From IMG/VR virus record IMGVR_UViG_3300025832_000005, positions 1-64,000 of that record: a stretch of DNA of 64,000 nt; one strand, written 5' to 3'. Of this stretch, positions 11,228 through 62,803 are shown in pieces (position 1 is the first letter of the stretch; each line of letters begins with the position of its first letter). The position numbers and the translations under genes are program-made. This stretch comes from an uncultured virus (IMG/VR IMGVR_UViG_3300025832_000005). Taxonomy: Duplodnaviria > Heunggongvirae > Uroviricota > Caudoviricetes. The notes under the pieces are model-generated. The model ran no database searches and was not told where the DNA came from. It saw only the letters and a program-made list of their open reading frames with translations.

Positions 11228-11255
11228 TTATAATCCTTTTATCTTTATTAATATT

Positions 11256-11284
11256 AATATAGTGTATCTTACGTCAGATGTCAA
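11256..11284 (-). promoter_or_regulatory. Sigma70-type promoter upstream of clpA
   Basis: TTGACA-N17 (contains ACGT core)-TATATT. Confidence 0.7.
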
Positions 11285-11287
11285 CAG

Positions 11288-12052
11288 CTAGATTACATCT
11301 TTAAGCAATTTATTTAAGTCTTGTTCAGTTAGTTTTGGAATATCTACCATTATTTCTACATACAAATTTCCATTGGAATTTCCACGACGTGGCAGTCCAC
11401 ACTCTGGTATTCGTAATCGTGTTTTAGATTGTGTACCTGGGTTAATCTTTAGTTTTATACTTCTGTTATCAAGTGTTGTAATAATCTTTTCTGTTCCTAA
11501 CATCGCTTCTCTTATACTAATATTTAACTGTTTTGTTAAATTAAACTCTTCTACGACAAATATTGGATGTCTTTTTAAACGATATCGTACAATTAGATTT
11601 CCTGGAATACCTGGTTGTGATATTTGTCCAAATCCAGTATACTTTACTTCAACACCATCATATATACCAGCAGGTATAGTTATAGTTAAGTTGCGAACTT
11701 CATTGTTGTGTTTTACTTCAATATCTTTTGGAGTATTGCTGATTAGTTCTTCTAGTGTTACATGGTATGTAATATGTATGTCTTGATTACGTGGTTGTCG
11801 CTGTGTAAAGTTAAAGTGTTGTTTAAATAGATCCTCAAATCCACGCATATCATTTTGGTTATGAAACCCTTGAGATCGATCTTGTTGTGGGGGATTTTTG
11901 ATATTATCGTAAGCCTCGTTAATAGTCTTAAACTTTTCTTCATCGCCGCCACGGTCAGGGTGATGTTGTTTAGCTAATTTACGATATGCTTGTTTGATTT
12001 CATCTTCGGACGCAGTTTGGCTGACACCCAAGACACTATAAGGATTAGTCAT
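11288..12052 (-). CDS. DnaJ/CbpA-type co-chaperone (no zinc finger)
   Basis: J-domain with HPD motif followed by DnaJ C-terminal domain. Confidence 0.9.
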   Translation of the reverse strand: MTNPYSVLGVSQTASEDEIKQAYRKLAKQHHPDRGGDEEKFKTINEAYDNIKNPPQQDRSQGFHNQNDMRGFEDLFKQHFNFTQRQPRNQDIHITYHVTLEELISNTPKDIEVKHNNEVRNLTITIPAGIYDGVEVKYTGFGQISQPGIPGNLIVRYRLKRHPIFVVEEFNLTKQLNISIREAMLGTEKIITTLDNRSIKLKINPGTQSKTRLRIPECGLPRRGNSNGNLYVEIMVDIPKLTEQDLNKLLKDVI

Positions 12053-36645: not shown

Positions 36646-37233
36646 TTATCTTTGTTCAATTACACGATCAGCTAGACCGTAGTCAACTGCTTCTTGTGCT
36701 GTTAAAAATGTATCACGATCCATGTCACGTTCAAAATCTTCATATGTCTTACCACTAGTATTATGCTTAACATACAGATTTGTCAACTGTTTTTTCATGT
36801 GTGTAATCTCTTTGTACTGGATCTCAATATCACTTTGCATGCCTCTGGCACCACCGCTTGGTTGATGGATCATTGTACGACTATTTGGTAATACCATACG
36901 CTTACCAGTTGCTCCAGCCTGTGCTAGGAAACTTCCCATACTACATGCTTGACCGTTTACAACTGTTACTACGTCTGGTTTAATGTACTGCATTGTATCA
37001 TAAATGCTCATGCCACTAGTAATAACACCACCAGGGCTGTTAATATACAATGTAATGTCAGCATCTGGATTTTCACTTTCCAGAAACAATAACTGACTTA
37101 CAATTAAATTAGCCATATAGTCTTCTACTTGACCATTAAGCATTACTACACGGTCTTTTAACAAGCGACTGTAGATATCATAACTACGTTCACCTGCACT
37201 TGTTTTATCAATTACGATGGGCACTAATGCCAT
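36646..37233 (-). CDS. clpP: ATP-dependent Clp protease proteolytic subunit
   Basis: [24 protein letters not shown] (Ser), MIHQP (His), DMDRD. Confidence 0.96.
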
Positions 37234-42044: not shown

Positions 42045-44087
42045 TTACTTGGTTTGGGCAAAAAACACGCCATTCCAATCTTTAGGTAAGTCTTGTGTCT
42101 TTTGGAATTCACAACGCTCAATCCACATATCATAGTAGCCAGCCATTTGTCCGTCAAAGTGATCATGTAACATCTTACACTTGTCTATTGCGTCATCAAA
42201 TCTTTGCGCCAGATAGTCTTCATACATATCTTGGTGTTTCTTTTGTGCTTTACGCCAAGCTGGACGCTTCTGATCTAATACTGTCCATATACCAACACCA
42301 ACACTCTTGCCTTTAACTGCTAAGTCATCTATCTTTAAGTAAAAGAAGTCTGACTTAGTTGTTTGGTATGTAGCATCGCCTACTAGTAGTAAACATCCGT
42401 ACTCTTTACATTTTGATTCAATACGTGCGGCAGTACTTACTGCGTCTCCCAAAACATCATAACTGTGTCTAGCTGTTGATCCCATCTCACCAATATAACC
42501 AAGTCCTGTATTGATACCTGCGCCCATGCCTACTGCTGGTCTACCTTGTGGAATAATAACTTCTTCATTAAATTTATCCACTGCCGCTAACATATCTAAT
42601 CCACATTGTACTGCGGTTCTTGGATGGTGACGATCATCTATAGGCGCATTGTGTATGTGCATACTAGCATCGCCTATATACTTAATAATCATTCCATCAC
42701 TGTCTAATACAGGCTGTGTAATACTATCCATGTAGCCATTCATTATTTTAGTTAGGCCTTTTACATCGTCACCAAAACTCTCACCTAGTGGAGTAAAGCC
42801 ACGCAAGTCACTAAACACGATACTAACTTCTTTCTTTACACCATCTTTAATGAGTGCTGGATTTTCTTGTAGTAGTTTAACAACTGTAGGTGATGCGTAT
42901 CCGCCAAACTGTTTCTTAATTTCTTGTTTTTGTAGGAATTCATCTACAAATTTAACTATATACCTAGTCATGCCCACTAGTATTAAAAAGGCACTAGATG
43001 TAGCGCCATCAATCAAATAGTTATAGTTATTAAAACTATATATGCTATAAAATATTGAACCACCTACTGCGACTACAAATACTATAATGCCAGCATAAGT
43101 CCAACGTGCTAGTACAATAACAAAAAGTCCTACTAATAAGAAGCCTAACATTTCAGCATCAAAAGCCCAAGCAGGTCGTTCAATATTACTTTTGTTAAAC
43201 ACTGTGCCAAGTATAGTGGCATGTATTTCGTGTGGGTATATACTGCCCGCCGCTGTTGCTACTGGCTGTGAAACACCTGCCGCTGTTGGGCCAACAAATA
43301 CTATGCCGCCATCAAAGTCGTCTGGTAAGTTTGTTGTGCTATAACTTTTATTCTTTTGACTCCAGTCAATCCAAACACGCCCAAGTCCATCTGTTTGTAT
43401 AATACCAAACTGTGGTATGCGTAGTTTGTCAACACCAAATTCATTTAACTTAATCTGAAAACTAGGATCTCCAGCAATAACTCGTAATACTTCCATTGTA
43501 ACACTTGGATAAAGTGTGCCTTGGCTTTCTATAACCATTGGCATACGTCTTGTTACACCATCAGCTTCTGGGAATGTATCTACGATGCCACTGCCAACTG
43601 ATGAAAATTCTATGTCTGGTACGTTTGCTATAACACCTTCACGGCTGGGTATAAGGTACATAAAGTCACTATTAACAATAGTAGCACCAGGATTAATTGC
43701 TTCGTTTTTATTCTCATCTGCGCCCAGCATGTTTAGGATAACTGGTAACTGTTGCATTGTTAATGCTAAATCTTGATCCTCTCCTGCTCGATCAGTTTCA
43801 GCCATTAGTACATTAAACACAACTAAGCCAGCACCACGGTCATATAAGTCTATAATTAACTCACTATAGTCTCCACGTGGCCAGGGCCATTGTCCTTTTT
43901 CTTCTAAACTTGCTTCGTCTATGTTAACAGTGTATATGTTATTTTCAATTGGCTCTTGATTTACTATTAGTTGGTCAAAGTATCTCAACCTTAAACTATC
44001 TAGAAATACTGGGTTACTACTATACACCCAAGTAAGAAGTAGTAGTACAAGCACACTCCATATTGGAGAGAATAATATCTTACGCAT
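42045..44087 (-). CDS. CHASE2-domain membrane adenylate cyclase (class III)
   Basis: IDE.SL...GQWPWPR CHASE2 motif, 3 TM helices, FSDLRGFT, KYIGD, YDVLGDAVSTAARIE. Confidence 0.92.
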   Translation of the reverse strand: MRKILFSPIWSVLVLLLLTWVYSSNPVFLDSLRLRYFDQLIVNQEPIENNIYTVNIDEASLEEKGQWPWPRGDYSELIIDLYDRGAGLVVFNVLMAETDRAGEDQDLALTMQQLPVILNMLGADENKNEAINPGATIVNSDFMYLIPSREGVIANVPDIEFSSVGSGIVDTFPEADGVTRRMPMVIESQGTLYPSVTMEVLRVIAGDPSFQIKLNEFGVDKLRIPQFGIIQTDGLGRVWIDWSQKNKSYSTTNLPDDFDGGIVFVGPTAAGVSQPVATAAGSIYPHEIHATILGTVFNKSNIERPAWAFDAEMLGFLLVGLFVIVLARWTYAGIIVFVVAVGGSIFYSIYSFNNYNYLIDGATSSAFLILVGMTRYIVKFVDEFLQKQEIKKQFGGYASPTVVKLLQENPALIKDGVKKEVSIVFSDLRGFTPLGESFGDDVKGLTKIMNGYMDSITQPVLDSDGMIIKYIGDASMHIHNAPIDDRHHPRTAVQCGLDMLAAVDKFNEEVIIPQGRPAVGMGAGINTGLGYIGEMGSTARHSYDVLGDAVSTAARIESKCKEYGCLLLVGDATYQTTKSDFFYLKIDDLAVKGKSVGVGIWTVLDQKRPAWRKAQKKHQDMYEDYLAQRFDDAIDKCKMLHDHFDGQMAGYYDMWIERCEFQKTQDLPKDWNGVFFAQTK

Positions 44088-45518: not shown

Positions 45519-46373
45519 TTAATTTTGTGTTACGCTAATAGCGCATCCTATTGTGTTTGTACAGATCCCTGTTAAACTGTATGATTGATTAGTTGTGCTG
45601 TCTTGTGTTGTATTTACAGTATACGCCCCACCACCATTGGTGAGGTCTAAAGTCATACTATGAGATCCAGTACCTTCCTGTGAACTCGTCACATCATGGT
45701 CGTTACCCGTTAGTACCAGTCTACCAAAGTTATATTGTCCACCTTGATATCCATCTATTGTATTATCATTTCCAACAACCTTCGCCTGAGCTTGATTGTA
45801 TTGTGATCCATCTTGTACAAGTGTAATGTTATTTCTATCACCAGTTATTGGTGTGTTGCCATACCCATGTACTATATGATTGTTACCATCTTGGTCTACA
45901 GTAATAGTATTATCATCACCGTTTGCTTCTACTTTTGCAAAGTTGTAATTACCATCTTGATCAACAATAATAGTTTGATTATAATCACCACCATTGCCTA
46001 GTTCGGCATATGCATAGTTATAGTTGCCATTTTGTTCAATATCAATAACACAATTATTACCATGGCAATCTAAACTTGCTGAGTTGTTATCGCCTATTTG
46101 CGACACATTGTTTATTCCATTACCAGAACTCATCCACGCCCACACTTGATTATTGTCACCTGTTTGCGCATATGTAGTGCTTGTGTTGTTACCACTTACT
46201 TGAGCTTTACCGCCCGAACCAGTTATCTTATTGTTAGCGCCATCTTGAGTGATAGTCATATCTATATTATCACCAACTTGTCTAATCCATATTTCATTTG
46301 CCCAACTAGTAGTTGTTTTGATTGATAACAATACTGTTAGAGGAACCAACACCCACTTTAAAACCGTATTCAT
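45519..46373 (-). CDS. Curlin-repeat protein (CsgA/CsgB-like)
   Basis: Signal peptide then tandem Q.G..N.A...Q/N repeats; ANEIWIRQVGDN. Confidence 0.8.
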   Translation of the reverse strand: MNTVLKWVLVPLTVLLSIKTTTSWANEIWIRQVGDNIDMTITQDGANNKITGSGGKAQVSGNNTSTTYAQTGDNNQVWAWMSSGNGINNVSQIGDNNSASLDCHGNNCVIDIEQNGNYNYAYAELGNGGDYNQTIIVDQDGNYNFAKVEANGDDNTITVDQDGNNHIVHGYGNTPITGDRNNITLVQDGSQYNQAQAKVVGNDNTIDGYQGGQYNFGRLVLTGNDHDVTSSQEGTGSHSMTLDLTNGGGAYTVNTTQDSTTNQSYSLTGICTNTIGCAISVTQN

Positions 46374-47436
46374 AAAACCCTCCTTGAACAAAGTCTACAT
46401 TGTAGCTGTGACTTTGGCTTAAATTTAATTGAAAGAAATGTTGATCTCCTTCTTTGCGACTTACTACAAAATAAGGATATTCCTCATCATAAAATATATT
46501 TGTATCTGGATCTAATCCAAAAAACTTATCCTGAAAAAACTCTACATTTTGTGTTCCTAGACTATCAAACCATTTTGATAGTATTTCAGCAAGTTGTTTT
46601 TCCAATTGATCTATAAACTCTGAATTTAGGTAAGTTGTGTTATCTAAATCAGTTACCCAAATATTTTTAATACCATCAACTAATGGATCACTGTCTAGTT
46701 CGTCAAACTCTAAAAAGTCAATGTCTAATATATCAGTAGGTGGTTTTTGTTTTATTATCTCTTCTGTGTAAGGTGATACTTTACGTACAATTAACATTGC
46801 TGTAAGCATATTTTCTGGTAAGTCTAGTACAACTCCTGGCTTTGGAACAGCACCACTGTGTGAAACTATAGTAGTTTGGAATGCTTGATTCATAATAACC
46901 ATTCCCACATCGCTCTCAACACTAATCTCACCAGTTACACATAATCCACTTTCATCACAACTGGGCAATAGTGTTATCATACTGCCGCCTATCTCATCTA
47001 CAATCATCATAAAGTCTGTACCACGCACTGTAACTTTAGCACTTGGCGTTCTTATGTTTACTCGTTGTCTTGAATTCTTTGCTATTTGTCCACTAGCATA
47101 ACGTACTGCGCCTAGTGTTGCTTTCATACTAAGAGCACCTGTTCCACTAGCTGGATCGTATATAAACTCATCAATAGTCATACGACTATTTTCAGTAACA
47201 TCTACTCTAGTATCGTCTACAAAGTCTAAACGCAATTTACCTTTACCAGTAGCAATATTATCGTTCATTTGTAAGCCAAGACCTACTTCGCCAGTGTATG
47301 CTTCTTTATCACGTTTAATTGTACTTGTGCCAGAAGATTCAGCAACCGCTCCAATAGGAGTTGCCCTAGCTATACTTACGTATGCTAGAGCAACAAATAT
47401 TATACATATAAGTTTAATCGGATTGTGTAATATCAA
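46306..47436 (-). CDS. FecR-domain periplasmic protein
   Basis: Signal peptide, D.I.TG.G...L.F.D.T...V.ENS...ID, IRTPSA.V.VRGTDF. Confidence 0.85.
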   Translation of the reverse strand: MILHNPIKLICIIFVALAYVSIARATPIGAVAESSGTSTIKRDKEAYTGEVGLGLQMNDNIATGKGKLRLDFVDDTRVDVTENSRMTIDEFIYDPASGTGALSMKATLGAVRYASGQIAKNSRQRVNIRTPSAKVTVRGTDFMMIVDEIGGSMITLLPSCDESGLCVTGEISVESDVGMVIMNQAFQTTIVSHSGAVPKPGVVLDLPENMLTAMLIVRKVSPYTEEIIKQKPPTDILDIDFLEFDELDSDPLVDGIKNIWVTDLDNTTYLNSEFIDQLEKQLAEILSKWFDSLGTQNVEFFQDKFFGLDPDTNIFYDEEYPYFVVSRKEGDQHFFQLNLSQSHSYNVDFVQGGFYEYGFKVGVGSSNSIVINQNNY

Positions 47437-48181
47437 CTGTGTTACCGTCCCCAGTTGAAGTTATATCTACTAGGTTATCGTAGATACCACTTTGTGTAAT
47501 AGTATATACACTACCACCACCTGTTATATCTAATGTTACAGTGTGTCCTAAAGTATCACCATTACCATCAATATTTAAATCAATAATGTTACCTGGAGAA
47601 TTAGTACTTAGGTTAGTATCAGTTGCGCTTGTAATTGTTGATCCACTTGCTGTTGATGCGCTGTTGTCAATTTCTACAGTAACATTAGCATCAGTTCCAT
47701 CCAAGTCCATTTGTATCAGGTTGTCATCACCATCAATTGTAAAGTTAACAGTGGCATCACCGCCATCAGTAGTTTCACCAATCTTAAAGTCATAGTTGTT
47801 GTCATCACCTGTTGTAGTAATATTTAATGTTACATTATCACAATTGCCACCACCAATTGTTGCTGTGCTGTCACATAATAGGTCAACATTGTTACTATTT
47901 CCAGTAAACACCCAGGTACCTGTATAACTGTCACCAGCAATAATTGCGTCAATAGTGTTTGTATCACCAGTTTGTGTTATACTAAACACCATATTATCGC
48001 CATAGAGCCCAGCGTCTGTAGTGCTGTCTCCAAATTCGTTGTTTTGTCCGTCTTGAGTGATATCTAAATCTAGACTATCCCCAATTTGTGTTATATATAT
48101 TTCATTAGCCATTACTGATAACGATGCTAATGTTGTAAACACTATTGCCATTATGGCACTACTTAATAATTTTTTCTGCAT
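47414..48181 (-). CDS. Curlin-like acidic repeat protein
   Basis: Signal peptide, ANEIYITQIGD, repeated I.Q/.G..N units. Confidence 0.75.
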   Translation of the reverse strand: MQKKLLSSAIMAIVFTTLASLSVMANEIYITQIGDSLDLDITQDGQNNEFGDSTTDAGLYGDNMVFSITQTGDTNTIDAIIAGDSYTGTWVFTGNSNNVDLLCDSTATIGGGNCDNVTLNITTTGDDNNYDFKIGETTDGGDATVNFTIDGDDNLIQMDLDGTDANVTVEIDNSASTASGSTITSATDTNLSTNSPGNIIDLNIDGNGDTLGHTVTLDITGGGSVYTITQSGIYDNLVDITSTGDGNTVDITQSD

Positions 48182-48396
48182 ATAGATCTCACTCTCACAC
48201 TTATATTTAGTGAAATGTGGGTGAAATTGGGCAGATATACTAAAGTATATTAGTTATTATGGGTATCTGGATTTAACGCCTTATCTGTATTGGGGCCAAC
48301 TTGTTGCCAAAATATTTGACTACGTGATTGTAATGTATGATATACTATACCACCTATTATAACTGCTAATGATATTAAAATCCATTTCATTTTAAG

Positions 48397-49215
48397 TTAA
48401 TGCTCACCTTCTAGATGAGATTCGCTTTCTTCCCATTGCCATAAGCCCAATTCAACACCTTGACATATAATTTCTATCACTACTGCTTCAATAGCTTCCC
48501 TTACAGCATAGTTTACTGGCTCGTTTACGCTGTAACCACTTTCAACTTCCAATGCTTTAGTGCCAAGGTCTAAAAACTTAAATACATCTCCAGCTGTGCG
48601 ATAACTAGCAATAGATTTTTCTGCGGCTACACTCACCAATACACGGCCGCTGCTTACGCTAACTAATCGCATACTAACTGTTACTGTATCAATACGATAC
48701 TCTGCGGCTGATCCAAGACCAAAGTATCTAGCACCTGCTCCGCCTGTGGTAATATTTGAATCGTAGCCTACAATGCCACCCTCAACTAATATACCAGCAA
48801 ACTTCATTGGCGGAAGTGGGGTAGCGTCTTCTGCTTCATAATTTTGCCTTGTGTTACGTATTAACTGACGTTCTTTAATAACGTTATCCATGCCTACACG
48901 TTCCACAACCTCAAACCAAGTGCCTTCGCCTGCTTGTAGCAACGCATCTATTACCCAAACTTCAGCACCCTGTGTTACTGCGCTAGATAAGTTAGCAATA
49001 TTGTCTGCTGGCTTACGTTGTCCAGTTTTATCTGTAAAGCTATATACTCCAACAGTCATAACAGGACCATTTAATGGCTTTAACTGATTCAGTTCTGTTA
49101 CTAGTGGGTTTTCCTGTAAGTTTGCTGGACGTTGTAATGGTTTAGGTAATTTTGGATTGTAATTACTACACCCAGCCAGAAATACAGTAAGTATTATTGT
49201 TGTTATTAGCTTCAA
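48397..49215 (-). CDS. csgG: Curli secretion channel lipoprotein CsgG
   Basis: LAGC lipobox, VYSF.DKTGQRKP, SSAVTQG, WFEVVER, ERQLIR, EGGIVGYDSN..TGG.GARYFG. Confidence 0.92.
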   Translation of the reverse strand: MKLITTIILTVFLAGCSNYNPKLPKPLQRPANLQENPLVTELNQLKPLNGPVMTVGVYSFTDKTGQRKPADNIANLSSAVTQGAEVWVIDALLQAGEGTWFEVVERVGMDNVIKERQLIRNTRQNYEAEDATPLPPMKFAGILVEGGIVGYDSNITTGGAGARYFGLGSAAEYRIDTVTVSMRLVSVSSGRVLVSVAAEKSIASYRTAGDVFKFLDLGTKALEVESGYSVNEPVNYAVREAIEAVVIEIICQGVELGLWQWEESESHLEGEH

Positions 49216-49697
49216 AAGTTAAACTCCCCAGATCCTGGAATAGTTATTTCTGTATAACCATCGGCGCCGTCAATAATTAGTGTAATACTGCCAGATGCCT
49301 CATCCTTGGTCCAAGAAATAGTAGCACCTTCAACTTCAGTCGTTCCACTATTAGCACAATCCGGTTGTCCTTCTTCACCACAAGCAGCAAACATATTGTC
49401 CACCATTTGTTTACTCAGTGTAGCATAGATTCTTGATTCTAAGTTTTTAATAAATTTATTGAGAGTAGTGTTTTCAAGTTCACGCTCAATACGATCAGCT
49501 TCACGTTGAGCTTCATCATCAATATCTTTTTGTCTATTGAATCCCAATTGCTCAATACTAAGTACGTGGGCACTATACCCAATGCCACTAAAACTAGGGT
49601 TTTTAAAACTGTGTGTTAAGTCGGCAGCCGCCGTACTTGGTACTAACATACTTAACCAAGTAAGGGATAACATGCCAATTACGTGTTGTATTTTCAT
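49212..49697 (-). CDS. csgF: Curli assembly component CsgF
   Basis: Signal peptide then L...FKNPSFSG motif; F...LESRI...LS; directly upstream of csgG. Confidence 0.8.
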   Translation of the reverse strand: MKIQHVIGMLSLTWLSMLVPSTAAADLTHSFKNPSFSGIGYSAHVLSIEQLGFNRQKDIDDEAQREADRIERELENTTLNKFIKNLESRIYATLSKQMVDNMFAACGEEGQPDCANSGTTEVEGATISWTKDEASGSITLIIDGADGYTEITIPGSGEFNF

Positions 49698-49719
49698 GTA
49701 ATGTTGTCTCCAACTATAT

Positions 49720-50064
49720 TTAGTATAATAGCTCGATACCAACAACTGCTCCTGGTTTAATTTTGCCTTGTATTTTTTCAACAGCATTTCCGACAAACAA
49801 TCTTACATTATTATGTACATCGTATGTGCCACGTACTTGGGGAACTATTAAACTAAGATATCCAGTTGTGGCTGTCAATTCAAATCCAAAGTTATCGTGT
49901 TCAAATCGTCTACCTGCATATAATGATATATTGTCTATACTATTTACAAATGCTCCAGCAATTACATTATCATTTTCATAACGTACATGTGGGTGTATTT
50001 CATTATACTCACCAGCAAGACCTAAATGAGCAGTCATTGCTAATCCAAATATTATATTTTCCAT
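49720..50064 (-). CDS. Small beta-rich (OM-barrel-like) protein, paralog 2
   Basis: AHLGLAGEYNEIHPHVR, GAFVNS..NISLYAG, TTGY. Confidence 0.65.
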   Translation of the reverse strand: MENIIFGLAMTAHLGLAGEYNEIHPHVRYENDNVIAGAFVNSIDNISLYAGRRFEHDNFGFELTATTGYLSLIVPQVRGTYDVHNNVRLFVGNAVEKIQGKIKPGAVVGIELLY

Positions 50065-52501: not shown

Positions 52502-53113
52502 TCAAGTACTTTGTGGCATAGTAAACAATGCTCTTACGTCATGTGACTCATTGCCTTCAATAGGCTTACGAGCAAATGCGCACCACTTGTATGCAAACAT
52601 TGTTTGATTGTCTGTACAGAATTCTCTAAAACTTGTACCTGTAGTATATACATCATCCACAACCATCCAAGGATGATCGCCTGGTGTTACATATTTTTCC
52701 ATAGCGTGTGCTAATGCCATTCCGCCACGTGGAATACCAACTACCTTACTAAAAGGTTCTGTTTGATAATCCATAATCATACGTGCTAATCCGTCCCACC
52801 ACTCTGGGCGTATAGCATCGCACTCAATCTTCCATGCTAGTTTATTTCCTGCGTGACTTGTAAAGTCACCTACTTCAAATAAGTCTGCGCCTGTTCTAAA
52901 TACCATTAGTTGCTTCTCCAATTCCATAATATATTCTGCAGCTTTCCAAGCATAGTGATCTGTACATTTTGTTTTCCATTCTTCACCTGCTTGGTTTTTT
53001 AATTTTACTACCCATTCAGTTTGTTCTACTCTTGCTTTAATTTCTGGATAGTCTTTATCAACAACATCATGTTCGTTTTCTTCTATCTCAAATCCATGTG
53101 TATTGTGTTGCAT
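52502..53113 (-). CDS. Type I phosphoribosyltransferase (orotate PRTase-like) with N-terminal extension
   Basis: GDFTSHAG, VVGIPRGG, VVDDVYTTGTS PRPP loop. Confidence 0.8.
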   Translation of the reverse strand: MQHNTHGFEIEENEHDVVDKDYPEIKARVEQTEWVVKLKNQAGEEWKTKCTDHYAWKAAEYIMELEKQLMVFRTGADLFEVGDFTSHAGNKLAWKIECDAIRPEWWDGLARMIMDYQTEPFSKVVGIPRGGMALAHAMEKYVTPGDHPWMVVDDVYTTGTSFREFCTDNQTMFAYKWCAFARKPIEGNESHDVRALFTMPQST

Positions 53114-53628
53114 TAGTATTCAACACCTGTGTAAAATGGTATACCACGAGCTTTTACTAAGTCGCTTCCACCTAATTTAGGTAGGTCAATAACAGTTGCT
53201 ACTGCCACAGTAAAAGCATTTAATTCTTGTACTAAATCCAATACTGCGCACATTGTGCCACCAGTTGCCATTAAGTCATCAATAATAAGGCAACGGTCTC
53301 CTGCTTCAATACTATCTGCTTGTATTTGTAATTTATTTGTTCCGTATTCTAAATCGTATTCTTTTTCAGCTATCTTACCAGGAAGTTTACCAGGTTTCCG
53401 TGCTAGTACTAGTGGGCCTCTTGTACGATGAGCAAACACACTAGCAAATATAAATCCACGAGCATCAATACCAATAATTTTATCTACAGGACAATATTTT
53501 AGTAAGTTACTGTATATAAAGTTATTTGCTTCTGCGTAACCATCTTGTGATGCGCATAAACTTGCTACATCCTTATAATCAATTCCATCAATTGGAAAGT
53601 TTTGGTAACTTGTTATGTATTGTTTCAT
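53113..53628 (-). CDS. apt: Adenine phosphoribosyltransferase
   Basis: FPIDGI.YKD, GIDARGF, RKPGKLP, YDLEYG, IIDDLMATGGT. Confidence 0.92.
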   Translation of the reverse strand: MKQYITSYQNFPIDGIDYKDVASLCASQDGYAEANNFIYSNLLKYCPVDKIIGIDARGFIFASVFAHRTRGPLVLARKPGKLPGKIAEKEYDLEYGTNKLQIQADSIEAGDRCLIIDDLMATGGTMCAVLDLVQELNAFTVAVATVIDLPKLGGSDLVKARGIPFYTGVEY

Positions 53629-53629
53629 T

Positions 53630-54490
53630 TTAATAACTCTGTGCTAGACGCCACATCAAATATTCTTTTGACTCAATGGGCTCATATTTTGATTGTTCGT
53701 CACGTAAGTTTTGTACTATTGTGCCGGGTGTTGGGTCTACAAAGTGTGGCATCGAATATCTTTGTTGATGTATATGACTGTTAACTACACGATGTTTAGT
53801 ACTTTTAAAATAATCGTTAGTCCAACGCTGTAGTAAGTCACCAATGTTAACAACTACTCCATCATCCGCATACGGGACCGGGTGCCACTCTTCTTTGAGA
53901 TCTTGGACTTGAAGCCCAGGAACATCATTAATCTGCCATAGTAATGTAATAGTGCCGTAGTCACTGTGTTCTCCTATACGCATTTGTTTATCTTGTACTG
54001 GTCCAGTATATGCTGGATAGTGAATAACTCTTGTTGTGTTAAATGGTTGTAAATGTGAATCTACTAGTGTAGTTCCACTATCTAAAATAGTATCAAACTT
54101 AGATAATATTTTCATAGTAAGTTTATCTGCAATGTCAATACTTTGTAAGGCTGTTGCTTTAAACTCTGGTAATTCTGTAGGCCAAAGGTCTTCTGGCATA
54201 CGTGTATTGTTGTAGTTAAAACTTTCTTTGATATCTTTTGGTGCTGTAGGATCAACGTTTTCGTCGCCTACCATGCTATAACCCAAGTTAGTATCTGCGT
54301 TATAAGGATAACTTTGTTTTTTATCCATTGGCAGTTCAAAGAATGCTTTCATTTGTTCTTGCCAAGACTTGATGTCTTGTTGATGTGTTTCAGTTAACGC
54401 ATTTGTAAACACTGCGAAGCCTACTGTTGTGTAGGCTTCGTCAATGCGATCTAAAGCGTCTGATGCTTGTAAATCAATTACTGGAATCAT
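53630..54490 (-). CDS. 2-oxoglutarate/Fe(II) dioxygenase (IPNS-like)
   Basis: IPVIDL, HSDYG (HxD), NIGDLLQRWTN, HRV, RYS. Confidence 0.9.
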   Translation of the reverse strand: MIPVIDLQASDALDRIDEAYTTVGFAVFTNALTETHQQDIKSWQEQMKAFFELPMDKKQSYPYNADTNLGYSMVGDENVDPTAPKDIKESFNYNNTRMPEDLWPTELPEFKATALQSIDIADKLTMKILSKFDTILDSGTTLVDSHLQPFNTTRVIHYPAYTGPVQDKQMRIGEHSDYGTITLLWQINDVPGLQVQDLKEEWHPVPYADDGVVVNIGDLLQRWTNDYFKSTKHRVVNSHIHQQRYSMPHFVDPTPGTIVQNLRDEQSKYEPIESKEYLMWRLAQSY

Positions 54491-55569
54491 TAACCAGGTA
54501 CCTTTGATGTAATGCCTTCGACATAGAACATCATAGTGTCTAGTTGCTGTCTAGTTGCTACTTCGCCTTCTTTCAGGAACACTGTTCCGTCTTGCTTGTT
54601 AATTGGACCTGTAAATCCAAATAACTCACCTGCGCTAATAGCATCTTTTACACGCTGTGCTTCTGCTTGTACGTCAGCTGGCATGTTAGCAAACGGTGCC
54701 ATTTGTACAGCGTCTTCGTTCATGTGTCCAAAGTAATCGCCTGTTTCCCATGTACCGTCTAGTACTTGTCCTACTTTCTTAATATAGTAAGGACCCCAAT
54801 TGTCAATAGTTGCTGTCAATTGTGCGTTAGGAGCAAACTTCATTTGATCACTTGCTTGTCCAAATCCAAGTACGCCTGCTTGTTCTGCTGATTGTAGTGG
54901 AGCAGGTGAGTCAGTATGCTGTGCTACAATGTCACAACCTTGGTCAATCAATGCTGTTGCCGCATCTTTTTCTTTACCTGGATCATACCATGTGTAAACC
55001 CACGCAATTGATAGTTCTACATCTGGATTGTACTTACGTGCACCCAAGAAGAACGTGTTAATCTCACGCATAACTTCTGGAATTGGGAATGAAGCAATAT
55101 AACAAATTTTGTTTGTTTTTGTCATCATACCTGCTACAACACCTTGTACGTGTCTTGCTTGGTATAGTTTCAAACCATAGTTAGCAACGTTGTCAGATGA
55201 TTTATAACCTGTAGCATGTTCAAACTTTACGTTTGGAAACTTCTTTGCTACGTTCATTATTGGATCCATATATCCAAATGATGTCGCAAAAATAATGTCT
55301 GCGCCCTGTAGTGCCATTTGTGTCATTACACGTTCAGCGTCAGCACCTTCTGCTACACTTTCAACAAATCGTGTTGTTACTCTGTCGCCGTATGCTTCTT
55401 CTACTTGCTGACGACCAATATCGTGACGGTATGTCCATCCGTGGTCACCAGTTGGTCCGACGTAAATAAATCCGACCGTGATGTTATCCTTAGGTGCATC
55501 TGCTTGTGCTGACACAGCTAAAGACCCCAACATTAATAATGTTGCGGAAAATAGTTTTAATAATTTCAT
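54490..55569 (-). CDS. BMP-family ABC transporter substrate-binding protein (purine nucleoside type)
   Basis: Signal peptide, GFIYVGP..DHGW...H..GR, TSFGYM, FPIPEV.R.IN, WYDP.KE, QHTDSP. Confidence 0.92.
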   Translation of the reverse strand: MKLLKLFSATLLMLGSLAVSAQADAPKDNITVGFIYVGPTGDHGWTYRHDIGRQQVEEAYGDRVTTRFVESVAEGADAERVMTQMALQGADIIFATSFGYMDPIMNVAKKFPNVKFEHATGYKSSDNVANYGLKLYQARHVQGVVAGMMTKTNKICYIASFPIPEVMREINTFFLGARKYNPDVELSIAWVYTWYDPGKEKDAATALIDQGCDIVAQHTDSPAPLQSAEQAGVLGFGQASDQMKFAPNAQLTATIDNWGPYYIKKVGQVLDGTWETGDYFGHMNEDAVQMAPFANMPADVQAEAQRVKDAISAGELFGFTGPINKQDGTVFLKEGEVATRQQLDTMMFYVEGITSKVPG

Positions 55570-55624
55570 TAATTAGGTTTCCTTTTGTGTTGGCTGTACT
55601 TTAACCTATGTTTCAGCCGTCATA

Positions 55625-55965
55625 GTGTAACGCTTCTGTTGCTAGGTGCGTTACAAACCCCCACTTACCTAATTAGGCAGCTAAAGCCATTTCTGGCGCT
55701 CTATTTGCGTTTGCATTTAGAAAGTTTATTCGCGGTAACGGCGCTTATATCCCGGTAACTCCACTCATCTATCCTACCTGTCGATCCTATTTCGACCCCA
55801 TCAAAAACACACTAGCACTCTTATTCTTTACCCTATTTCTAGGTCCTCTATATCGAGTTATCATCTCGGGAAAGAGAGGTTATATTTCAAACCTAATGTG
55901 TTTATGGTGGAGTCGCCGGGTACCGCCCCCGGGTCCAGTATAGTCGTCAAATCACTTCAACGTTA
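55625..55965 (-). ncRNA. ssrA: Two-piece (circularly permuted) tmRNA, alphaproteobacterial type; outer ends approximate
   Basis: Acceptor piece ...GACCCGGGGGCGGTACCCGGCGACTCCACCA (CCA end at 55905), then ~105-nt intervening segment, then GGGGTCGAAATAGGATCGAC (55799); G3:U pair; tag ORF 55714..55673 ANANRAPEMALAA*. Confidence 0.93.
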
Positions 55966-55970
55966 CAGTC

Positions 55971-56001
55971 TATTTATATACTAAACACAAGAGGATGTCA
56001 A
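55971..56001 (-). promoter_or_regulatory. Overlapping sigma70 and late promoters for the tmRNA
   Basis: TTGACA-N17-TATAAA, with the -10 embedded in TATAAATA. Confidence 0.7.
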
Positions 56002-56102
56002 GCCTTATTATAGAAAAGACTAAATAGACTGGATAGAAAAAACACACTCAAATTTTTTTGAGCTAATTTTTTTTAGGCTGAATTTCAGAAAAGGAAAAAA
56101 AG

Positions 56103-56945
56103 ATGACGCAACTCATAAACCCACAAAAATTTACAGACACAGTTGGCCTTTTAAGGTCATTTTTTTTGGACAAAGGCTTCTTAGAAGTACATACCCAAAA
56201 TAGACTAAGCATACTTGCCGCATGTGAAGATCCGTTCAATGTAGCAACATACAATTACGCAGACCAGGTTTGGCCATTACCGCAAACAGGCCAGATGTGG
56301 TTAGAACATGAATTATTAAGCAAGCCCGATAGTAAGGGCTTTTTTTGTGTGTCAACGTCCTATAGACAGGAACCAAACGCTATACCAGGCAGACACGACA
56401 TTATCTTCCCAATGTTTGAGTTTGAGATGCCGGGCGATGTAGATGATCTTAAAAAGATGGAAATTGAACTATGTGATTACTTGGGCTTTGACCCACTAAC
56501 AGAAAAAACATACAGCGACTGGCAAAAACACTTTGGTGTAAGTCAATCAACTGAAATGGACGCACAACACGAATTAGCAATGGATATGAACTTTGGTAGT
56601 TGTTTAATTACAGACTTCCCAGAACTAACATCACCTTTCTGGAACATGGCACGTAACGATGATGGCAATACTGCTAAGAAGATGGATGTTATCTTAGGTG
56701 GTATGGAAACTATTGGATCAGCAGAACGTAGTTGTGATGTTGATATGATGCGTGATACATTCCACAGTATTGTAGACGGAGACTATGCTGAGCTGCTGTT
56801 TAAATTGTTTGGTAAAGAACGTGTAGAAGCAGAACTAGAAGAGTTCCTCAAGTTTGACTTCTTCCAAAGAGTAGGTGGTGGCATTGGCATGACACGTATG
56901 ATTGCCGCACTGGATAAACTACAAAGTTTAGACAAAGCCGCCTAA
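56103..56945 (+). CDS. Class IIb aminoacyl-tRNA synthetase catalytic-domain-only protein (Asn/Asp-type)
   Basis: Motif 1 LRSFFLDKGFLEVHT, motif 2 SYRQE...GRH...F.MFEFE, ETIGSAER, motif 3 GGGIGMTR; no N-terminal OB fold (280 aa). Confidence 0.85.
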   Translation: MTQLINPQKFTDTVGLLRSFFLDKGFLEVHTQNRLSILAACEDPFNVATYNYADQVWPLPQTGQMWLEHELLSKPDSKGFFCVSTSYRQEPNAIPGRHDIIFPMFEFEMPGDVDDLKKMEIELCDYLGFDPLTEKTYSDWQKHFGVSQSTEMDAQHELAMDMNFGSCLITDFPELTSPFWNMARNDDGNTAKKMDVILGGMETIGSAERSCDVDMMRDTFHSIVDGDYAELLFKLFGKERVEAELEEFLKFDFFQRVGGGIGMTRMIAALDKLQSLDKAA

Positions 56946-56952
56946 AAATTGA

Positions 56953-57052
56953 TCTGGGGTGGTGAAAGTGGTAGACACGCACGACTGTTTATCGTGTGGT
57001 AGATGTTCGCAAAATATTTATCGTGTAGGTTCGAATCCTACCCCCAGAGCCA
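56953..57052 (+). tRNA. tRNA with GTT (Asn) anticodon and long variable arm
   Basis: Acceptor TCTGGGG/CCCCAGA, G73, CCA; D arm GTG..GGTAGA.CAC; anticodon arm CACGA-CTGTTTA-TCGTG; ~25-nt variable arm; T arm GTAGG-TTCGAAT-CCTAC. Confidence 0.9.
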
Positions 57053-59867: not shown

Positions 59868-61016
59868 CTATAACTTGGTGGTAGTAGACTCATACGTTTT
59901 ATTAAACTGGTTGTTTACACGAATAAATGTTGTACATTTACTCAGTTGCTTTAGTGTATTGGCACCAACGTATGTACATGTACTGCGAACGCCGCCCAGA
60001 ATGTTTTGCACAGTTCTAGCAATTTCACCACGATAAGGCACAAGCACTTCACGTCCTTCACTTGAACGATACTCTTTAAGTCCGCCAAAGTGTTTAGTGT
60101 TTGCCGCATCACTGCTCATTCCGTAGAACTTTATGAATTGTTTTTCTTCTACTTTATGTACACAATTGGCCAAATGCTCGCCAACTTGATATTCTAGTTC
60201 ACTAGTTTCATAGTATCGGGTAATTACGTCACCACCACCTTCATCGTGTCCAGCAAGCATACCGCCTAGCATTACAAAGTCGGCCCCGCCCGCAAAAGCC
60301 TTAGCAATATCGCCAGGACAGGTACACCCACCGTCAGCAATAATATGACCACCAAGGCCATGAGCGGCATCAGCGCACTCAATAACGGCACTGAGCTGTG
60401 GATATCCCACACCAGTTTGAATACGAGTGGTACATACACTACCTGGTCCAATACCAACTTTAACTATGTCTGCTCCATTTAGTATTAACTCTTGCGTTTG
60501 ATCTGCCGTAACCACATTACCAGCAATAATTACTACTTTAGGAAAGCGGAATTTAAATTCTCCCACAAACTCCACAAAACGTTGACTGTATCCGTTTGCC
60601 ACATCAATACAAACGTATTTTAAATTTTCTTTACATACTGTATAAACTTTTTCAAATTTGTTTAAGTCACGATCCTGAATACCAATACTCATAGCAACAT
60701 AGTCACTACGCTCAGGTAAATCAGATGTAAAGTATTTGATTAAATCTTGTTCACTATATGTTTTAACTAGACATGTAAAGATGTTGCCTTCAGCAAGTTT
60801 GTCTGCCATTTCAAATGTACCAACACCATCCATGTTGCTTGCCATAATTGGAACACCTTTCCAATCATATTCTCCAGACATAATGTCTTGTTTGTTATAA
60901 TTACGGAATGTAAATTCACGTTCTAAGTTTACTTCTTTGCGTGAGCCTAATGTGCTACGCTTTGGACGAATCAAGACATCGCTGTAGTCCAACAGTACTT
61001 CATTTTCAATTCTCAT
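59868..61016 (-). CDS. guaC: GMP reductase
   Basis: [60 protein letters not shown]. Confidence 0.93.
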
Positions 61017-61017
61017 A

Positions 61018-61317
61018 TTATTCTTCCTCTACTTTAAGAGTTAATGGAAACCCAGCACTACGACTAATAGTTGTAGCTTCATGTGATTTCTGTTCAGCAA
61101 CTTCATAATTAAAAATACCCGCAATACCTGAACCTGTATTGTGTACTGCTAGTGTAATTTGATGAGCTTCAGATTCTGATTTATTAAAAATACCAATAAG
61201 AATTTCTATAACAAAATCCATTGGAGTTAGATCATCATTTAGTAAAATAACTTTGTATTTTTTTGGATGTGCGAAAATCCATGATGTGTCGATCTTAGAT
61301 GCTAGTTCTGTACTCAT
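61018..61317 (-). CDS. clpS: ATP-dependent Clp protease adaptor ClpS
   Basis: [26 protein letters not shown]. Confidence 0.92.
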
Positions 61318-61338
61318 TGCTTTACCTAATTGTTATGT

Positions 61339-61358
61339 GGGGCGGCGTTAACCGCCCC
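61339..61358. terminator. GC-rich hairpin after hsp20
   Basis: GGGGCGG-cgttaa-CCGCCCC; weak U-tail. Confidence 0.5.
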
Positions 61359-61371
61359 TAGTGTTATAGTT

Positions 61372-61806
61372 TTATACTGCTGAAATTTCTATTTTTCTGG
61401 GTTTCTTTTCTTCTGGAATGATACGTTCAAGCTCTACATATAGCATGCCGTTCTCCATCCTCGCACCCTGTACCACTACATCATCAGCGAGTGTAAAACT
61501 GCGCTTAAATTTACGTTGCGCAATTCCACGATGTACCCAGCGTACTGATTCATTTGGTTCAACTTCAACCGGGTCATGTGTAATAGTTAATTCACCATCT
61601 GCGACTTCAATATCTATATCATCCATACGTACACCAGCTAATGCCATCTCAATTTGGAAACGGTTTTTCTCTTGTACAATATTGTATGGTGGGTACCCAG
61701 CATTTTGTGGATGTTCAGTGTACTTAAACATGTCGTTAAACATTCGTTCTAAGCCAACACTGTGAGGGGTAAGTTTATTCAAGTCAATCGTTGTTAATCT
61801 ATTCAT
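61372..61806 (-). CDS. Small heat-shock protein (Hsp20/IbpA family)
   Basis: YPPYNI, IEMALAG, HRGIAQRKF.RSF.LA, A.MENGML...L....PEEKKPRKI.I. Confidence 0.95.
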   Translation of the reverse strand: MNRLTTIDLNKLTPHSVGLERMFNDMFKYTEHPQNAGYPPYNIVQEKNRFQIEMALAGVRMDDIDIEVADGELTITHDPVEVEPNESVRWVHRGIAQRKFKRSFTLADDVVVQGARMENGMLYVELERIIPEEKKPRKIEISAV

Positions 61807-61865
61807 CTTATATCTCCTTTATTAAGCAAGATGTATTTTGTGGACCCATAATTGGCATCCACAGT
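61807..61865 (-). promoter_or_regulatory. ROSE-like RNA thermometer leader of hsp20
   Basis: UCUUGCU-uaaua-AAGGAGA hairpin with bulged G opposite SD; upstream GUGGA/UCCAC hairpin; ATAAATA promoter just upstream. Confidence 0.6.
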
Positions 61866-62028
61866 TATTTATGTGTCGGTAGGCTAACTATCGCCCACCA
61901 CGTGCTTATTTCGTAGCAACCCGTAGTTCTGTATATGTATTTCTTATCTTGCTCACTTGACGACTAGCGCATTGAGTGGCATTTCTTATCGTAATACTAA
62001 TATAGTACATACGGTACTGATTGTCAAG

Positions 62029-62277
62029 CTATCTATTGGAGTTTTTTTGTTGTTCTTTTAGCCAGCGTTTACGTGCCGCTGCTTTAGCCTTTTTACGCTT
62101 TAGACTTGGCTTCTCAAAATATTCACGGTCACGAAGCTCTTTAAGCAAGCCTTCATTGTTTACCATTTTCTTTAGTTTACGTAGCGCACGAGCTATGTCG
62201 TTATTGTGTACGTCTACTTGTAGTCCTCTATTTTCTTTTTGTTCTCGTCTTCTTGGTTTTCTATTATCTCTATCCAT
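62029..62277 (-). CDS. rpsU: Ribosomal protein bS21
   Basis: V.V.NNDI..ALRKLKK.....G...EL..R.YFEKPS..RK. Confidence 0.9.
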   Translation of the reverse strand: MDRDNRKPRRREQKENRGLQVDVHNNDIARALRKLKKMVNNEGLLKELRDREYFEKPSLKRKKAKAAARKRWLKEQQKNSNR

Positions 62278-62803
62278 TTTTTCCTCGTTTTAATATTCCT
62301 ATTAGCCGATTACCATTTAAACTAGGCTTTGAATCCCATTCAACTTCCTCAAGTGTATCTACTACACGAGCAAGTATCTCAAATCCTACCTGTTTATTTG
62401 CGTTTTCTCGGCCTCTAAAACGCACCATTAGTTTTACTTTATTTCCTTTACTAAGGAATTTTTCAATATTTTTTAGTTTAGTGTCAAAATCATGATCACC
62501 AATATTAGGTTTAAACTGTATCTCTTTTACTTCAATACGGCTTTCACGTTGCCGTTTGGCTAGATCTTTTTCACGCCGCTTTTGTTCGTAGAGATATTTA
62601 TTAGCATCTAAAATCTTAGCGATAGGAGGTTTGGCAGATTCAGTTATTACTACTAAATCTAATCCTCTACTCTCAGCAATTTTTAGTGCTTTTGACTTAT
62701 GCATAACTCCAAGTTGACCTTGATCGTCAACTACTCTTAACTCACTGTAACGTATTTGTCCGTTAATAGGTGTTTTAGGTTCTGGTTTGCTAAATTTTTT
62801 CAT
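62270..62803 (-). CDS. infC: Translation initiation factor IF-3
   Basis: INGQIR...LRVV...G.LG, LDLV.I.....PP.AKI.D..KY.YE, KEIQF.P.I..HD...K, G.KVK....FRGRE. Confidence 0.93.
   Translation of the reverse strand: MKKFSKPEPKTPINGQIRYSELRVVDDQGQLGVMHKSKALKIAESRGLDLVVITESAKPPIAKILDANKYLYEQKRREKDLAKRQRESRIEVKEIQFKPNIGDHDFDTKLKNIEKFLSKGNKVKLMVRFRGRENANKQVGFEILARVVDTLEEVEWDSKPSLNGNRLIGILKRGKNG

Follow-up and report, generated by a model that had tools for sequence, protein, structure and literature searches.

A complete 100-nt tRNA gene with an encoded CCA end and the anticodon GUU was read directly at positions 56953-57052 (+ strand) of the window, a 64,000-nucleotide stretch of DNA from an uncultured virus of the Caudoviricetes (positions 1 to 64,000 of IMG/VR record IMGVR_UViG_3300025832_000005). 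The tRNA carries asparagine (Asn) identity elements on a leucine (Leu)-type class II body, and it directly follows a gene for a cut-down protein related to asparaginyl-tRNA synthetase (AsnRS). Comparison with its relatives indicates that this hybrid is a functional, structurally conserved tRNA kept by one marine T4-like phage lineage, and it is probably the private partner of the AsnRS-like enzyme, beyond being another decoding tRNA. The reading that we favor, tentatively and with a probability of roughly 0.35, is that it may be a captive Asn carrier serving the enzyme. The enzyme gene and the parts of the tRNA are as follows.

56103-56945, + strand: class IIb synthetase catalytic core of AsnRS type, 280 aa, ending 7 nt before the tRNA
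56953-56959, + strand: 5' strand of the acceptor stem, UCUGGGG, pairing with 57042-57048 (CCCCAGA) and giving U1:A72
56959-56978, + strand: D arm, Leu-like, with a 3-bp stem, A13/A22 unpaired, and a large loop with GG
56980-56996, + strand: anticodon arm, stem CACGA/UCGUG, loop CUGUUUA
56987-56989, + strand: anticodon GUU, from direct reading and Rfam alignment
56990, + strand: U37, from direct reading
56998-57022, + strand: variable arm GGUAGAUGUU-CGCAA-AAUAUUUAUC, 10 bp, 3 of them G:U, with the loop CGCAA
57025-57041, + strand: T arm GUAGG-UUCGAAU-CCUAC, from direct reading and Rfam
57049, + strand: discriminator G73, from direct reading
57050-57052, + strand: encoded CCA, from direct reading

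Structure and conservation of the hybrid tRNA

Every structural detail that a first-pass annotation of this DNA had listed (U1:A72, G73, GUU, U37, a Leu-like D arm, and a G:U-bearing variable arm of ~10 bp) was read back in the sequence. The Rfam tRNA model RF00005, which has a gathering score of 29, gave the gene 47.1 bits (E = 6.4e-7) and placed CUGUUUA as the anticodon loop. The minimum-free-energy fold was a cloverleaf with a 10-bp extra arm (-33.3 kcal/mol, z = -2.89), and 0 of 200 shuffled sequences folded as well. Acceptor and T stems have the standard 7/5 geometry; the acceptor of more than 7 bp with a shortened T stem that marks tRNA-Sec and allo-tRNAs (8/5, 9/4, 8/4, or 9/3) was not found in the 56953-57052 tRNA. 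ARAGORN placed a tRNA gene at exactly these coordinates with the label "Asp (atc) at position 39." We rejected this label because it would need an irregular anticodon arm and because GUU is the anticodon in the Rfam alignment, in the minimum-free-energy fold, and in all relatives. It is an artifact of the long variable arm, and shorter-armed relatives are labeled Asn(gtt) by the same program.

The D arm (56959-56978) is identical to tRNA-Leu(UAG) of the same phage at 17 of 20 positions and to its canonical tRNA-Asn at 12 of 20. The anticodon arm (56980-56996) matches that canonical tRNA-Asn at 14 of 17 positions and either of the phage tRNA-Leu genes at 4 of 17. An Asn anticodon on a body best described by a Leu or Ser model had been predicted in the first-pass annotation. 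We ran this check in reverse, with a family covariance model built from relatives of the hybrid tRNA (class II-type tRNAs), and tRNA-Leu outranked tRNA-Asn as predicted. Within the same phage, the model gave 62.5 bits to tRNA-Leu(UAG), 52.8 to tRNA-Leu(UAA), and 44.6 to the canonical tRNA-Asn; the window tRNA itself scored 112.3 bits and the cyanophage copies 77-83 bits. When the model was applied to five cellular genomes, the 13 best matches fetched were all tRNA-Leu.

Set beside bacterial tRNA-Asn, the window tRNA has the expected GUU, G73, and U1:A72 and the same C32/U33/A38 loop frame. It departs from the class I body (variable loop of 4-5 nt, D stem of 4 bp) in its 25-nt variable arm, where tRNA-Asn has a 5-nt loop, and in its 3-bp Leu-type D stem, and it also differs in being tied to an enzyme gene. 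It has U37 where A37 is expected; A37 is the site of N6-threonylcarbamoyladenosine (t6A), the rule for tRNAs reading ANN codons. With class II tRNA-Leu, the hybrid shares the long variable arm and the characteristic D arm, in keeping with the first rank of tRNA-Leu in the other genomes. The NAG or NAA anticodon of tRNA-Leu and its A73, the rule for the tRNA-Leu discriminator, are replaced by GUU and G73, and U1:A72 is a further difference.

The family sample consisted of ~80 independent viral contigs and three Prochlorococcus phages. It yielded 83 parsed tRNA loci, one of them mis-parsed, and denominators are accordingly 82 or 83. GUU and U1:A72 were each present in 82/82 parsed copies and G73 in 83/83; U1:A72 was also present in all 43 of 43 distinct relatives. 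CCA was encoded at 78 of 83 loci, the remaining five having TTT, as in the cyanophage copies, and family members have a standard T-loop and the D-loop GG. Position 37 was U in 61-62 copies, A in 20, and C in 1. C33 occurred in 4 of the 83 copies, positions 32/38 were C-A in 65, U-C in 16, and another combination in 2, and the variable region ranged from 13 to 40 nt. In this sample, the marks read by enzymes of the aminoacylation pathway are frozen, whereas positions that matter mainly on the ribosome drift.

Covariation was measured on an alignment of 43 distinct members chosen by a rule that demanded pairing. Compensatory changes were found in 15 of the 22 stem pairs, including all five pairs of the anticodon stem, and the two outer pairs of the variable arm covary among relatives. 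The covariation score was 0.426 compared with a shuffled mean of 0.128 (0 of 500 shuffles reached it) and with 0.035-0.095 for slid controls. All 946 of 946 cells were paired, which is partly by construction given the choice of rows, but the compensatory double changes are not circular.

The first-pass annotation had itself raised the prospect that the gene is a decayed copy of a tRNA-Leu or tRNA-Ser, or that its anticodon loop contains an assembly error. Only the Leu-like body speaks for decay. No homolog with a Leu or Ser anticodon was found among the parsed copies, GUU being present in 82/82; U37 recurs in 61-62 of 83 independent copies and is therefore not an assembly error; and the identical sequence occurs in RNA-library contigs of two studies. 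Together with the compensatory changes at 15 of 22 pairs, the RNA-library identity and the conservation of GUU rule out decay or error, to which we leave a negligible probability.

The AsnRS-like gene and its linkage to the tRNA

The gene immediately upstream, which is the decisive context for the tRNA, was overlooked in the first-pass annotation. Gene and tRNA lie on the + strand amid - strand genes. Residues 14-278 of the 280-aa protein match Pfam PF00152 (E = 7.6e-17), and the protein belongs to the class IIb catalytic cores with motifs 2 and 3: R88, E90, R97, H98, GGGIG, and R265 are conserved, and phage and cellular members alike retain the motif 2 and 3 arginines, R88 and R265. It is not a full-length AsnRS. 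The protein starts at the catalytic domain and lacks the N-terminal oligonucleotide-binding (OB)-fold domain that binds the anticodon; asnS, aspS, and AsnA models gave weak, partial matches, TIGR00457 (asnS) scoring 29.1 bits against a cut-off of 342.6.

The affinity of this core is with AsnRS. A sequence search of the PDB with the single protein returned weak matches to aspartyl-tRNA synthetase (AspRS) only. A profile of 43 family members placed the AsnRS structures 2xti/2xgt at the top (2.6e-14) and archaeal AspRS next, with the archaeal asparagine synthetase paralog 3p8t far behind (2.9e-6). An AlphaFold2 model of the 280-aa enzyme (pLDDT 95.6) found the AsnRS structures 1x54, 2xti, and 9sh8 as its best Foldseek matches (~2e-17; query TM-score [TMq], 0.71-0.75). 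The enzyme is also matched by PHROG 29758 (9.9e-132), which is annotated as "unknown function." Members of the family have the motif QTGQMWLE (QxxQxxLE), compared with QSSQLYLE in AsnRS and QSPQLYKQ (QSPQxxKQ) in AspRS. From structural work, we take the Lys of the AspRS motif to be the residue that reads the aspartate carboxylate; the family is without it, and the pocket therefore looks Asn-type.

Relatives of the enzyme are encoded on at least 597 viral contigs, and the best 80 of these were examined for the tRNA with the family covariance model. The tRNA directly follows the open reading frame (ORF) in 76 of the 80 loci, and at one further locus the contig breaks off within the tRNA copy. 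In the reverse direction, DNA patterns based on the tRNA only (a fixed D-loop length gave 5 loci; a variable gap gave 120 loci, 80 of them with DNA) led to an ORF of this family ending just upstream in 85/85 fetched loci. The two genes are thus co-inherited by both counts, 77/80 and 85/85, and 4-10 nt separate the tRNA from the stop codon at 77 of 83 parsed loci. The pair is also present in the Prochlorococcus phages P-SSM7, P-SSM2, and P-SSM5, with 65-68% protein identity and with tRNAs of 87-88 nt that have the CUGUUUA loop, U1:A72, and G73 and no encoded CCA. In the records examined, the enzyme is labeled "tRNA ligase" and the tRNA plain "tRNA-Asn." The P-SSM2 record (AY939844.2) annotates "tRNA-Asn" PSSM2_199 at 5825-5910, inside a coding sequence and ~2 kb downstream of the actual tRNA at locus 3813-3900, which both ARAGORN and the family model place directly after the "tRNA ligase" gene.

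The enzyme family as a whole does not depend on the tRNA: 3 of the 80 viral loci lack it, as do two huge phages and 63 cellular relatives. In a quick tree with Shimodaira-Hasegawa-like approximate likelihood ratio test (SH-aLRT) support, 20 of 21 tRNA-linked enzymes fell into one nested clade (SH-aLRT 98) together with one unlinked row (L060), and the linked L100 lay just outside this main clade. Presence of the tRNA required 3 changes on the tree compared with a shuffled mean of 19.2. A nested linked clade amid unlinked relatives indicates that the tRNA was recruited once, in a marine phage lineage.

The linkage bears on two alternatives. In the first, the gene would be an ordinary supplementary decoding tRNA-Asn whose U37 loop and body help it to escape host nucleases or modification, and it would travel as a passenger in a two-gene cassette. 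The pair does sit in differing gene neighborhoods in different phages, like a mobile cassette, and other long-armed tRNAs with class I anticodons in related phages suggest a general phage habit. Anticodon-loop changes in phage tRNAs have been hypothesized to confer insensitivity to host anticodon nucleases, colicin E5 among them, in the accessible part of PMC10264068. The tRNAs considered there resemble the hybrid in being phage-encoded with non-canonical anticodon loops, but tRNA-Asn goes unmentioned in that part of the paper, as do position 37, class II bodies, and any linkage to an enzyme. We regard this explanation as unlikely because it leaves three observations unaccounted for: the enzyme gene lies within a few bases of 85/85 tRNA copies across 65% protein divergence, the family model has the hybrid tRNA as its sole match in the P-SSM2 genome, and a second, canonical tRNA-Asn is retained.

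In the second alternative, the tRNA-like sequence would act in cis, as a processing site for RNase P or RNase Z, a stabilizer of the mRNA 3' end, or a recombination handle of the cassette. The constant gap of 4-10 nt after the stop codon, the terminator-like hairpin found where the tRNA is missing, and RNA-library contigs that bridge ORF and tRNA would fit such a role. A processing signal would need no invariant GUU, G73, and U1:A72 and no encoded CCA, however, and we consider a cis-acting element very improbable.

Cellular relatives and possible roles of the pair

A search of 1.84 billion representatives returned 685 clusters at E <= 1e-3. Among them, P0124 is a dihydroorotate dehydrogenase (PyrD) fused to a core that is 56% identical to the window enzyme, and P0139 is a core fused to orotidine 5'-monophosphate (OMP) decarboxylase (PyrF); no names are on record for these two fusion proteins. 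Relatives are encoded at 406 places in bacterial and archaeal genomes, mostly of Patescibacteria, with Saprospiraceae/Aureispira, Weeksellaceae, and some Proteobacteria in addition. Among the best 80 of the 406, neighboring genes included a PyrE-PyrF gene at 10 loci, PyrD at 6, a tRNA-dihydrouridine synthase (Dus) gene at 14, and DnaX at 14. In these 80, loci with a long tRNA(GUU) after the gene were confined to phage-like marine contigs (7 of 10 tested with the model). Among the best model matches fetched, which covered 13 regions of cellular carriers and 7 of two huge phages, there was no class II tRNA(GUU). At L094 and 13 further Patescibacteria loci, from Saccharibacteria and allied groups, the Dus gene lies ~0.5 kb upstream of the enzyme gene, and DnaX, often with a tRNA-Gln, lies downstream; these genomes have none of the pyrimidine genes that were looked for.

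Presence of pyrimidine and Asn-tRNA genes was scored in three Bacteroidota carriers, two complete carriers from the candidate phyla radiation (CPR; 0.7 Mb), and 14 controls. The Bacteroidota carriers are metagenome-assembled genomes of unstated completeness, and absences from them are provisional.

PyrD: Bacteroidota 3/3, CPR 0/2, controls 14/14
PyrF: Bacteroidota 3/3, CPR 0/2, controls 14/14
PyrB: Bacteroidota 0/3, CPR 0/2, controls 14/14
CarB: Bacteroidota 0/3, CPR 0/2, controls 14/14
PyrC over cut-off: Bacteroidota 0/3, CPR 0/2, controls 11/14
AsnRS: Bacteroidota 3/3, CPR 0/2, controls 6/14
GatB: Bacteroidota 0/3, CPR 2/2, controls 12/14

We conclude that the enzyme family otherwise works without a private tRNA and that, in one cellular group or more, it has a tie to pyrimidine synthesis.

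On the phage side, the genome record spans 133,132 bp (37.9% GC) and has a tRNA cluster at 99.6-102.2 kb. This cluster includes a canonical 76-nt class I tRNA-Asn at 101262-101337 with U1:A72, G73, and the loop CUGUUAA, so the hybrid is redundant there for plain decoding. The host-type genomes tested lack AsnRS. Among five marine alphaproteobacterial candidates, AsnRS over the cut-off was found in 0/5, GatB in 5/5, and AsnB in 2/5. AsnRS was likewise found in 0/3 complete Prochlorococcus and 0/1 marine Synechococcus genomes, in contrast to Calothrix (663 bits), and AsnB was present in 3/4 of these picocyanobacteria. With AsnRS in 0/9 host-type genomes, Asn-tRNA is made there by the indirect route.

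In the reading that we favor, the phage would keep the tRNA mainly for a purpose other than decoding AAY codons. Charging with asparagine would be left to the indirect pathway of an AsnRS-less host, in which GUU and G73 would serve as marks for a non-discriminating AspRS (ND-AspRS) and U1:A72 as the mark for GatCAB. The Leu-type body and the pyrimidine-37 loop would keep the hybrid apart from the tRNA-Asn used in translation. Being a bare class II core, the enzyme could meet only the acceptor end of the tRNA, and it would use the tRNA-bound, carboxyl-activated asparagine, or swap asparagine with the tRNA, for a reaction of its own that in cellular relatives would belong to pyrimidine synthesis. 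We prefer this captive-carrier reading because it fits the frozen GUU, G73, and U1:A72, the drifting positions 33, 37, and 32/38, an enzyme reduced to its catalytic core, hosts that lack AsnRS, and the presence of a further, canonical tRNA-Asn. From these features we infer the charging agent, the amino acid carried, and the enzyme's use of the tRNA. Of the roles that the first-pass annotation had proposed, that of a non-ribosomal aminoacyl donor is the best fit, with nuclease evasion still a rival; nothing was found in support of frameshifting.

As a chemical guess, Asn + CO2 + ATP (or Asn-tRNA + CO2) could yield dihydroorotate, which would bypass CarAB, PyrB, and PyrC. Carboxyl-activated Asn would plausibly react with CO2 by way of an N-carboxyanhydride that is opened by the side-chain amide, and the product would feed PyrD. 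The fully specified version, a tRNA-dependent shunt into pyrimidine synthesis with a decoding-impaired tRNA(GUU), host loading by ND-AspRS and GatCAB, and dihydroorotate as the product, is speculative, and we think it improbable as a whole.

The carrier reading has to be weighed against a private (orthogonal) synthetase:tRNA pair, in which the cut-down AsnRS would charge the tRNA with free Asn for AAY decoding. Such an enzyme would recognize the acceptor end and the Leu-type body instead of the anticodon and would give AsnRS-less hosts a one-step supply of Asn-tRNA. The AsnRS-type fold, the pocket signature, and the intact ATP motifs agree with this, as do the invariant GUU, the encoded CCA, the standard T-loop, and the D-loop GG. 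An enzyme without an anticodon domain would need a distinctive tRNA body, and SerRS and LeuRS use the long variable arm as a recognition handle. The absence of AsnRS from all nine host-type genomes tested, most of which have AsnB, the share of Asn codons in the long ORFs of the phage (5.9%), and the two-way linkage of gene and tRNA fit as well. On the other hand, ~100 conserved positions are common to the phage enzymes and their cellular relatives, yet these relatives occur alongside a normal AsnRS, without a tRNA of this kind, and as fusions with pyrimidine genes or next to them. For a decoder of codons that start with A, the pyrimidine at position 37 in 62-63 of the 83 copies would be odd, and so would C33 in 4 of them; a canonical tRNA-Asn is already in the genome; and the enzyme is acidic with no clade-specific basic patch. 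We hold a private decoding pair to be a close rival, only slightly less probable than the captive carrier.

Several observations count against the captive-carrier reading. The tRNA-linked enzymes have a median isoelectric point of 4.71 and a net charge of -19 (5.24 and -11 for unlinked enzymes), and comparison of linked with unlinked enzymes revealed no extra basic residues or tRNA-binding signature in the phage proteins. The linked clade has just 12 positions of its own, and ~100 are conserved in linked and unlinked enzymes alike; given this and the acidity, nothing in the enzymes points to a tRNA-binding surface acquired anew. In 20 of 83 tRNA copies, the loop is the fully canonical CUGUUAA. 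At L029 and L060/L061, a hairpin follows the enzyme ORF instead of the tRNA, and the clade of L090/L092/L093 has the enzyme without the tRNA. The pyrimidine link is not universal, as the two complete CPR carriers lack PyrB, PyrC, PyrD, PyrF, and CarB, and none of PyrB, PyrC, PyrD, PyrE, and PyrF was found among 125 ORFs of the phage (>=110 aa, E <= 1e-6). Long-armed Ile(UAU), Trp(CCA), and CAU tRNAs are tied to no enzyme, so the long arm is not specific to the pair.

The host side adds further difficulties. AsnB in 3/4 picocyanobacteria and 2/5 alphaproteobacterial candidates means that free Asn would often be available, and assignment of a host to the window phage rests on one phage gene. This is the PnrA/Bmp-type gene adjoining the pair; its closest counterparts are in Planktomarina (80%) and SAR116 (64-70%), which is a weak hint. 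In the accessible part of PMC2811023, bacterial GatCAB is described as reading U1-A72 and the D-loop; with the Leu-like D-loop present here, amidation of the hybrid tRNA by the host is not assured. As for expression, which we count in favor of the carrier reading, the stretch was present at >=99% identity in metatranscriptome assemblies of two studies, and single contigs (X1 record 8, X2 record 16, and X4 record 25) run without differences from the ORF interior through the whole tRNA, but this evidence consists of assembled contigs, which are no proof of a transcript, its ends, its CCA, its level, or its charging.

Genome setting, known systems, and significance

Terminase, sheath, and gp15-like matches identify the phage as a T4-like myovirus. 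Its genes include a curli set, ClpP, a ClpB-like ATPase, DnaJ, PhoH, ribonucleotide reductase, and phosphoribosyl pyrophosphate (PRPP) synthase. Genes for nucleotide salvage flank the pair at 52502-55569 and 59868-61016 (both - strand): an adenine phosphoribosyltransferase (167.8 bits), a second phosphoribosyltransferase-like ORF without a family match, a 2-oxoglutarate (2OG)-Fe(II) oxygenase, a PnrA/Bmp nucleoside-binding lipoprotein, and a gene of the GMP reductase/IMPDH family. The neighboring phosphoribosyltransferase was considered as a pyrimidine gene and rejected, being of the adenine type.

Other long-armed tRNAs with class I anticodons were found in this genome (CAU, 85 nt, 101991-102075) and in related phages, namely, Ile-UAU tRNAs of 94 nt at L051:1407-1500, L052:2950-3043, and L056:2864-2957 and a Trp-CCA tRNA of 85 nt at L073:155-239. 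Hybrid class II bodies may thus be a wider habit of these phages. A tRNA-Ser at 100706-100796 of the genome record bears the unusual anticodon ACU, and at 105416-105506 lies a 91-nt ARAGORN "tRNA-Thr(ggt)" in a GCT/GGT-rich repeat with mismatched stems, which is probably a false call in a coding repeat. In LR756508.1, a 484-kb phage, ARAGORN reported 99-nt tRNA-like genes at 9418-9518 and 10212-10311 as Pro(tgg) and Leu(aag); their anticodon is at position 37, and they may contain long insertions.

A two-piece permuted transfer-messenger RNA (tmRNA) of alphaproteobacterial type, with the tag ANANRAPEMALAA, lies at 55582-56026 (-) (Rfam alpha_tmRNA, 127 bits; tmRNA_permuted, 110 bits). Its summed contig depth was 512 and 208 in two metatranscriptome runs compared with ~25 in the flanks, and several variant contigs join across 55799-55905. 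Translation and proteostasis genes at 61018-62803, 8993-12052, and 36646-37233 (all - strand) encode IF3, ribosomal protein S21, ClpS, Hsp20, the ClpB-like ATPase, DnaJ, and ClpP. The curli-type secretion set at 45519-49787 (-) comprises a curlin-repeat protein, a FecR-like protein, CsgG, and CsgF; a curli operon is mentioned for phages of this kind in the accessible part of a pelagimyophage paper (PMC7029224). At 42045-44087 (-), the phage encodes a 680-aa protein that combines a CHASE2 sensor domain with an adenylate/guanylate cyclase domain.

Known systems offer partial parallels to the pair. PylRS/tRNA-Pyl and SepRS/tRNA-Cys likewise place an unusual tRNA body beside a class II enzyme that does not need the anticodon. 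The present pair differs from them in that there is no recoding signal or new codon, the enzyme's closest relatives in cells are metabolic proteins without a tRNA partner, and charging is only predicted. In the transamidosome (ND-AspRS, GatCAB, and tRNA-Asn), the marks read are those frozen in the hybrid tRNA, G73 and GUU being read in tRNA-dependent Asn formation. The host-type genomes tested are without AsnRS, and all five alphaproteobacterial candidates have GatB. The Leu-like D-loop, the phage origin of the tRNA, and the coupling to a third enzyme set the present case apart. AS-AR (3p8t), EpmA/PoxA (3a5y), and HisZ are bare class II cores of ~280-330 aa like the window enzyme, and AS-AR and EpmA were among the matches of the family profile (2.9e-6 and 2.9e-4), but the window family is much closer to true AsnRS (2.6e-14). 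None of the three is known to have a tRNA gene of its own.

The full-text literature searched, with subscription journals and supplements outside its scope, contained no description of the hybrid tRNA or of the pair. The accessible part of Sullivan 2010 (PMC3037559) has "tRNA ligase" (T4-GC 194) only in a table, and the pair goes unmentioned in that of Zaragoza-Solas 2020 (PMC7029224). The tRNA is of unprecedented hybrid build, and the two-gene system stands a real chance of being a new kind of tRNA-dependent metabolism.

With the enzyme on at least 597 viral contigs, including those of cultured Prochlorococcus phages, the pair is common, and either reading can be tested in P-SSM2 or P-SSM7 with Prochlorococcus NATL systems. 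If the two genes form a private charging pair, they would be a natural, compact, anticodon-blind synthetase:tRNA pair of interest to genetic-code engineers. If the tRNA is instead the working partner of a metabolic enzyme, this would be a new use of tRNA outside translation. Glu-tRNA in tetrapyrrole synthesis is the precedent for an aminoacyl-tRNA that enters central metabolism as a substrate; the pyrimidine shunt, if true, would make Asn-tRNA the second case and the first with a dedicated virus-encoded tRNA. A metabolic role would also add a new auxiliary route by which abundant ocean viruses may rewire the nitrogen and nucleotide metabolism of their hosts.

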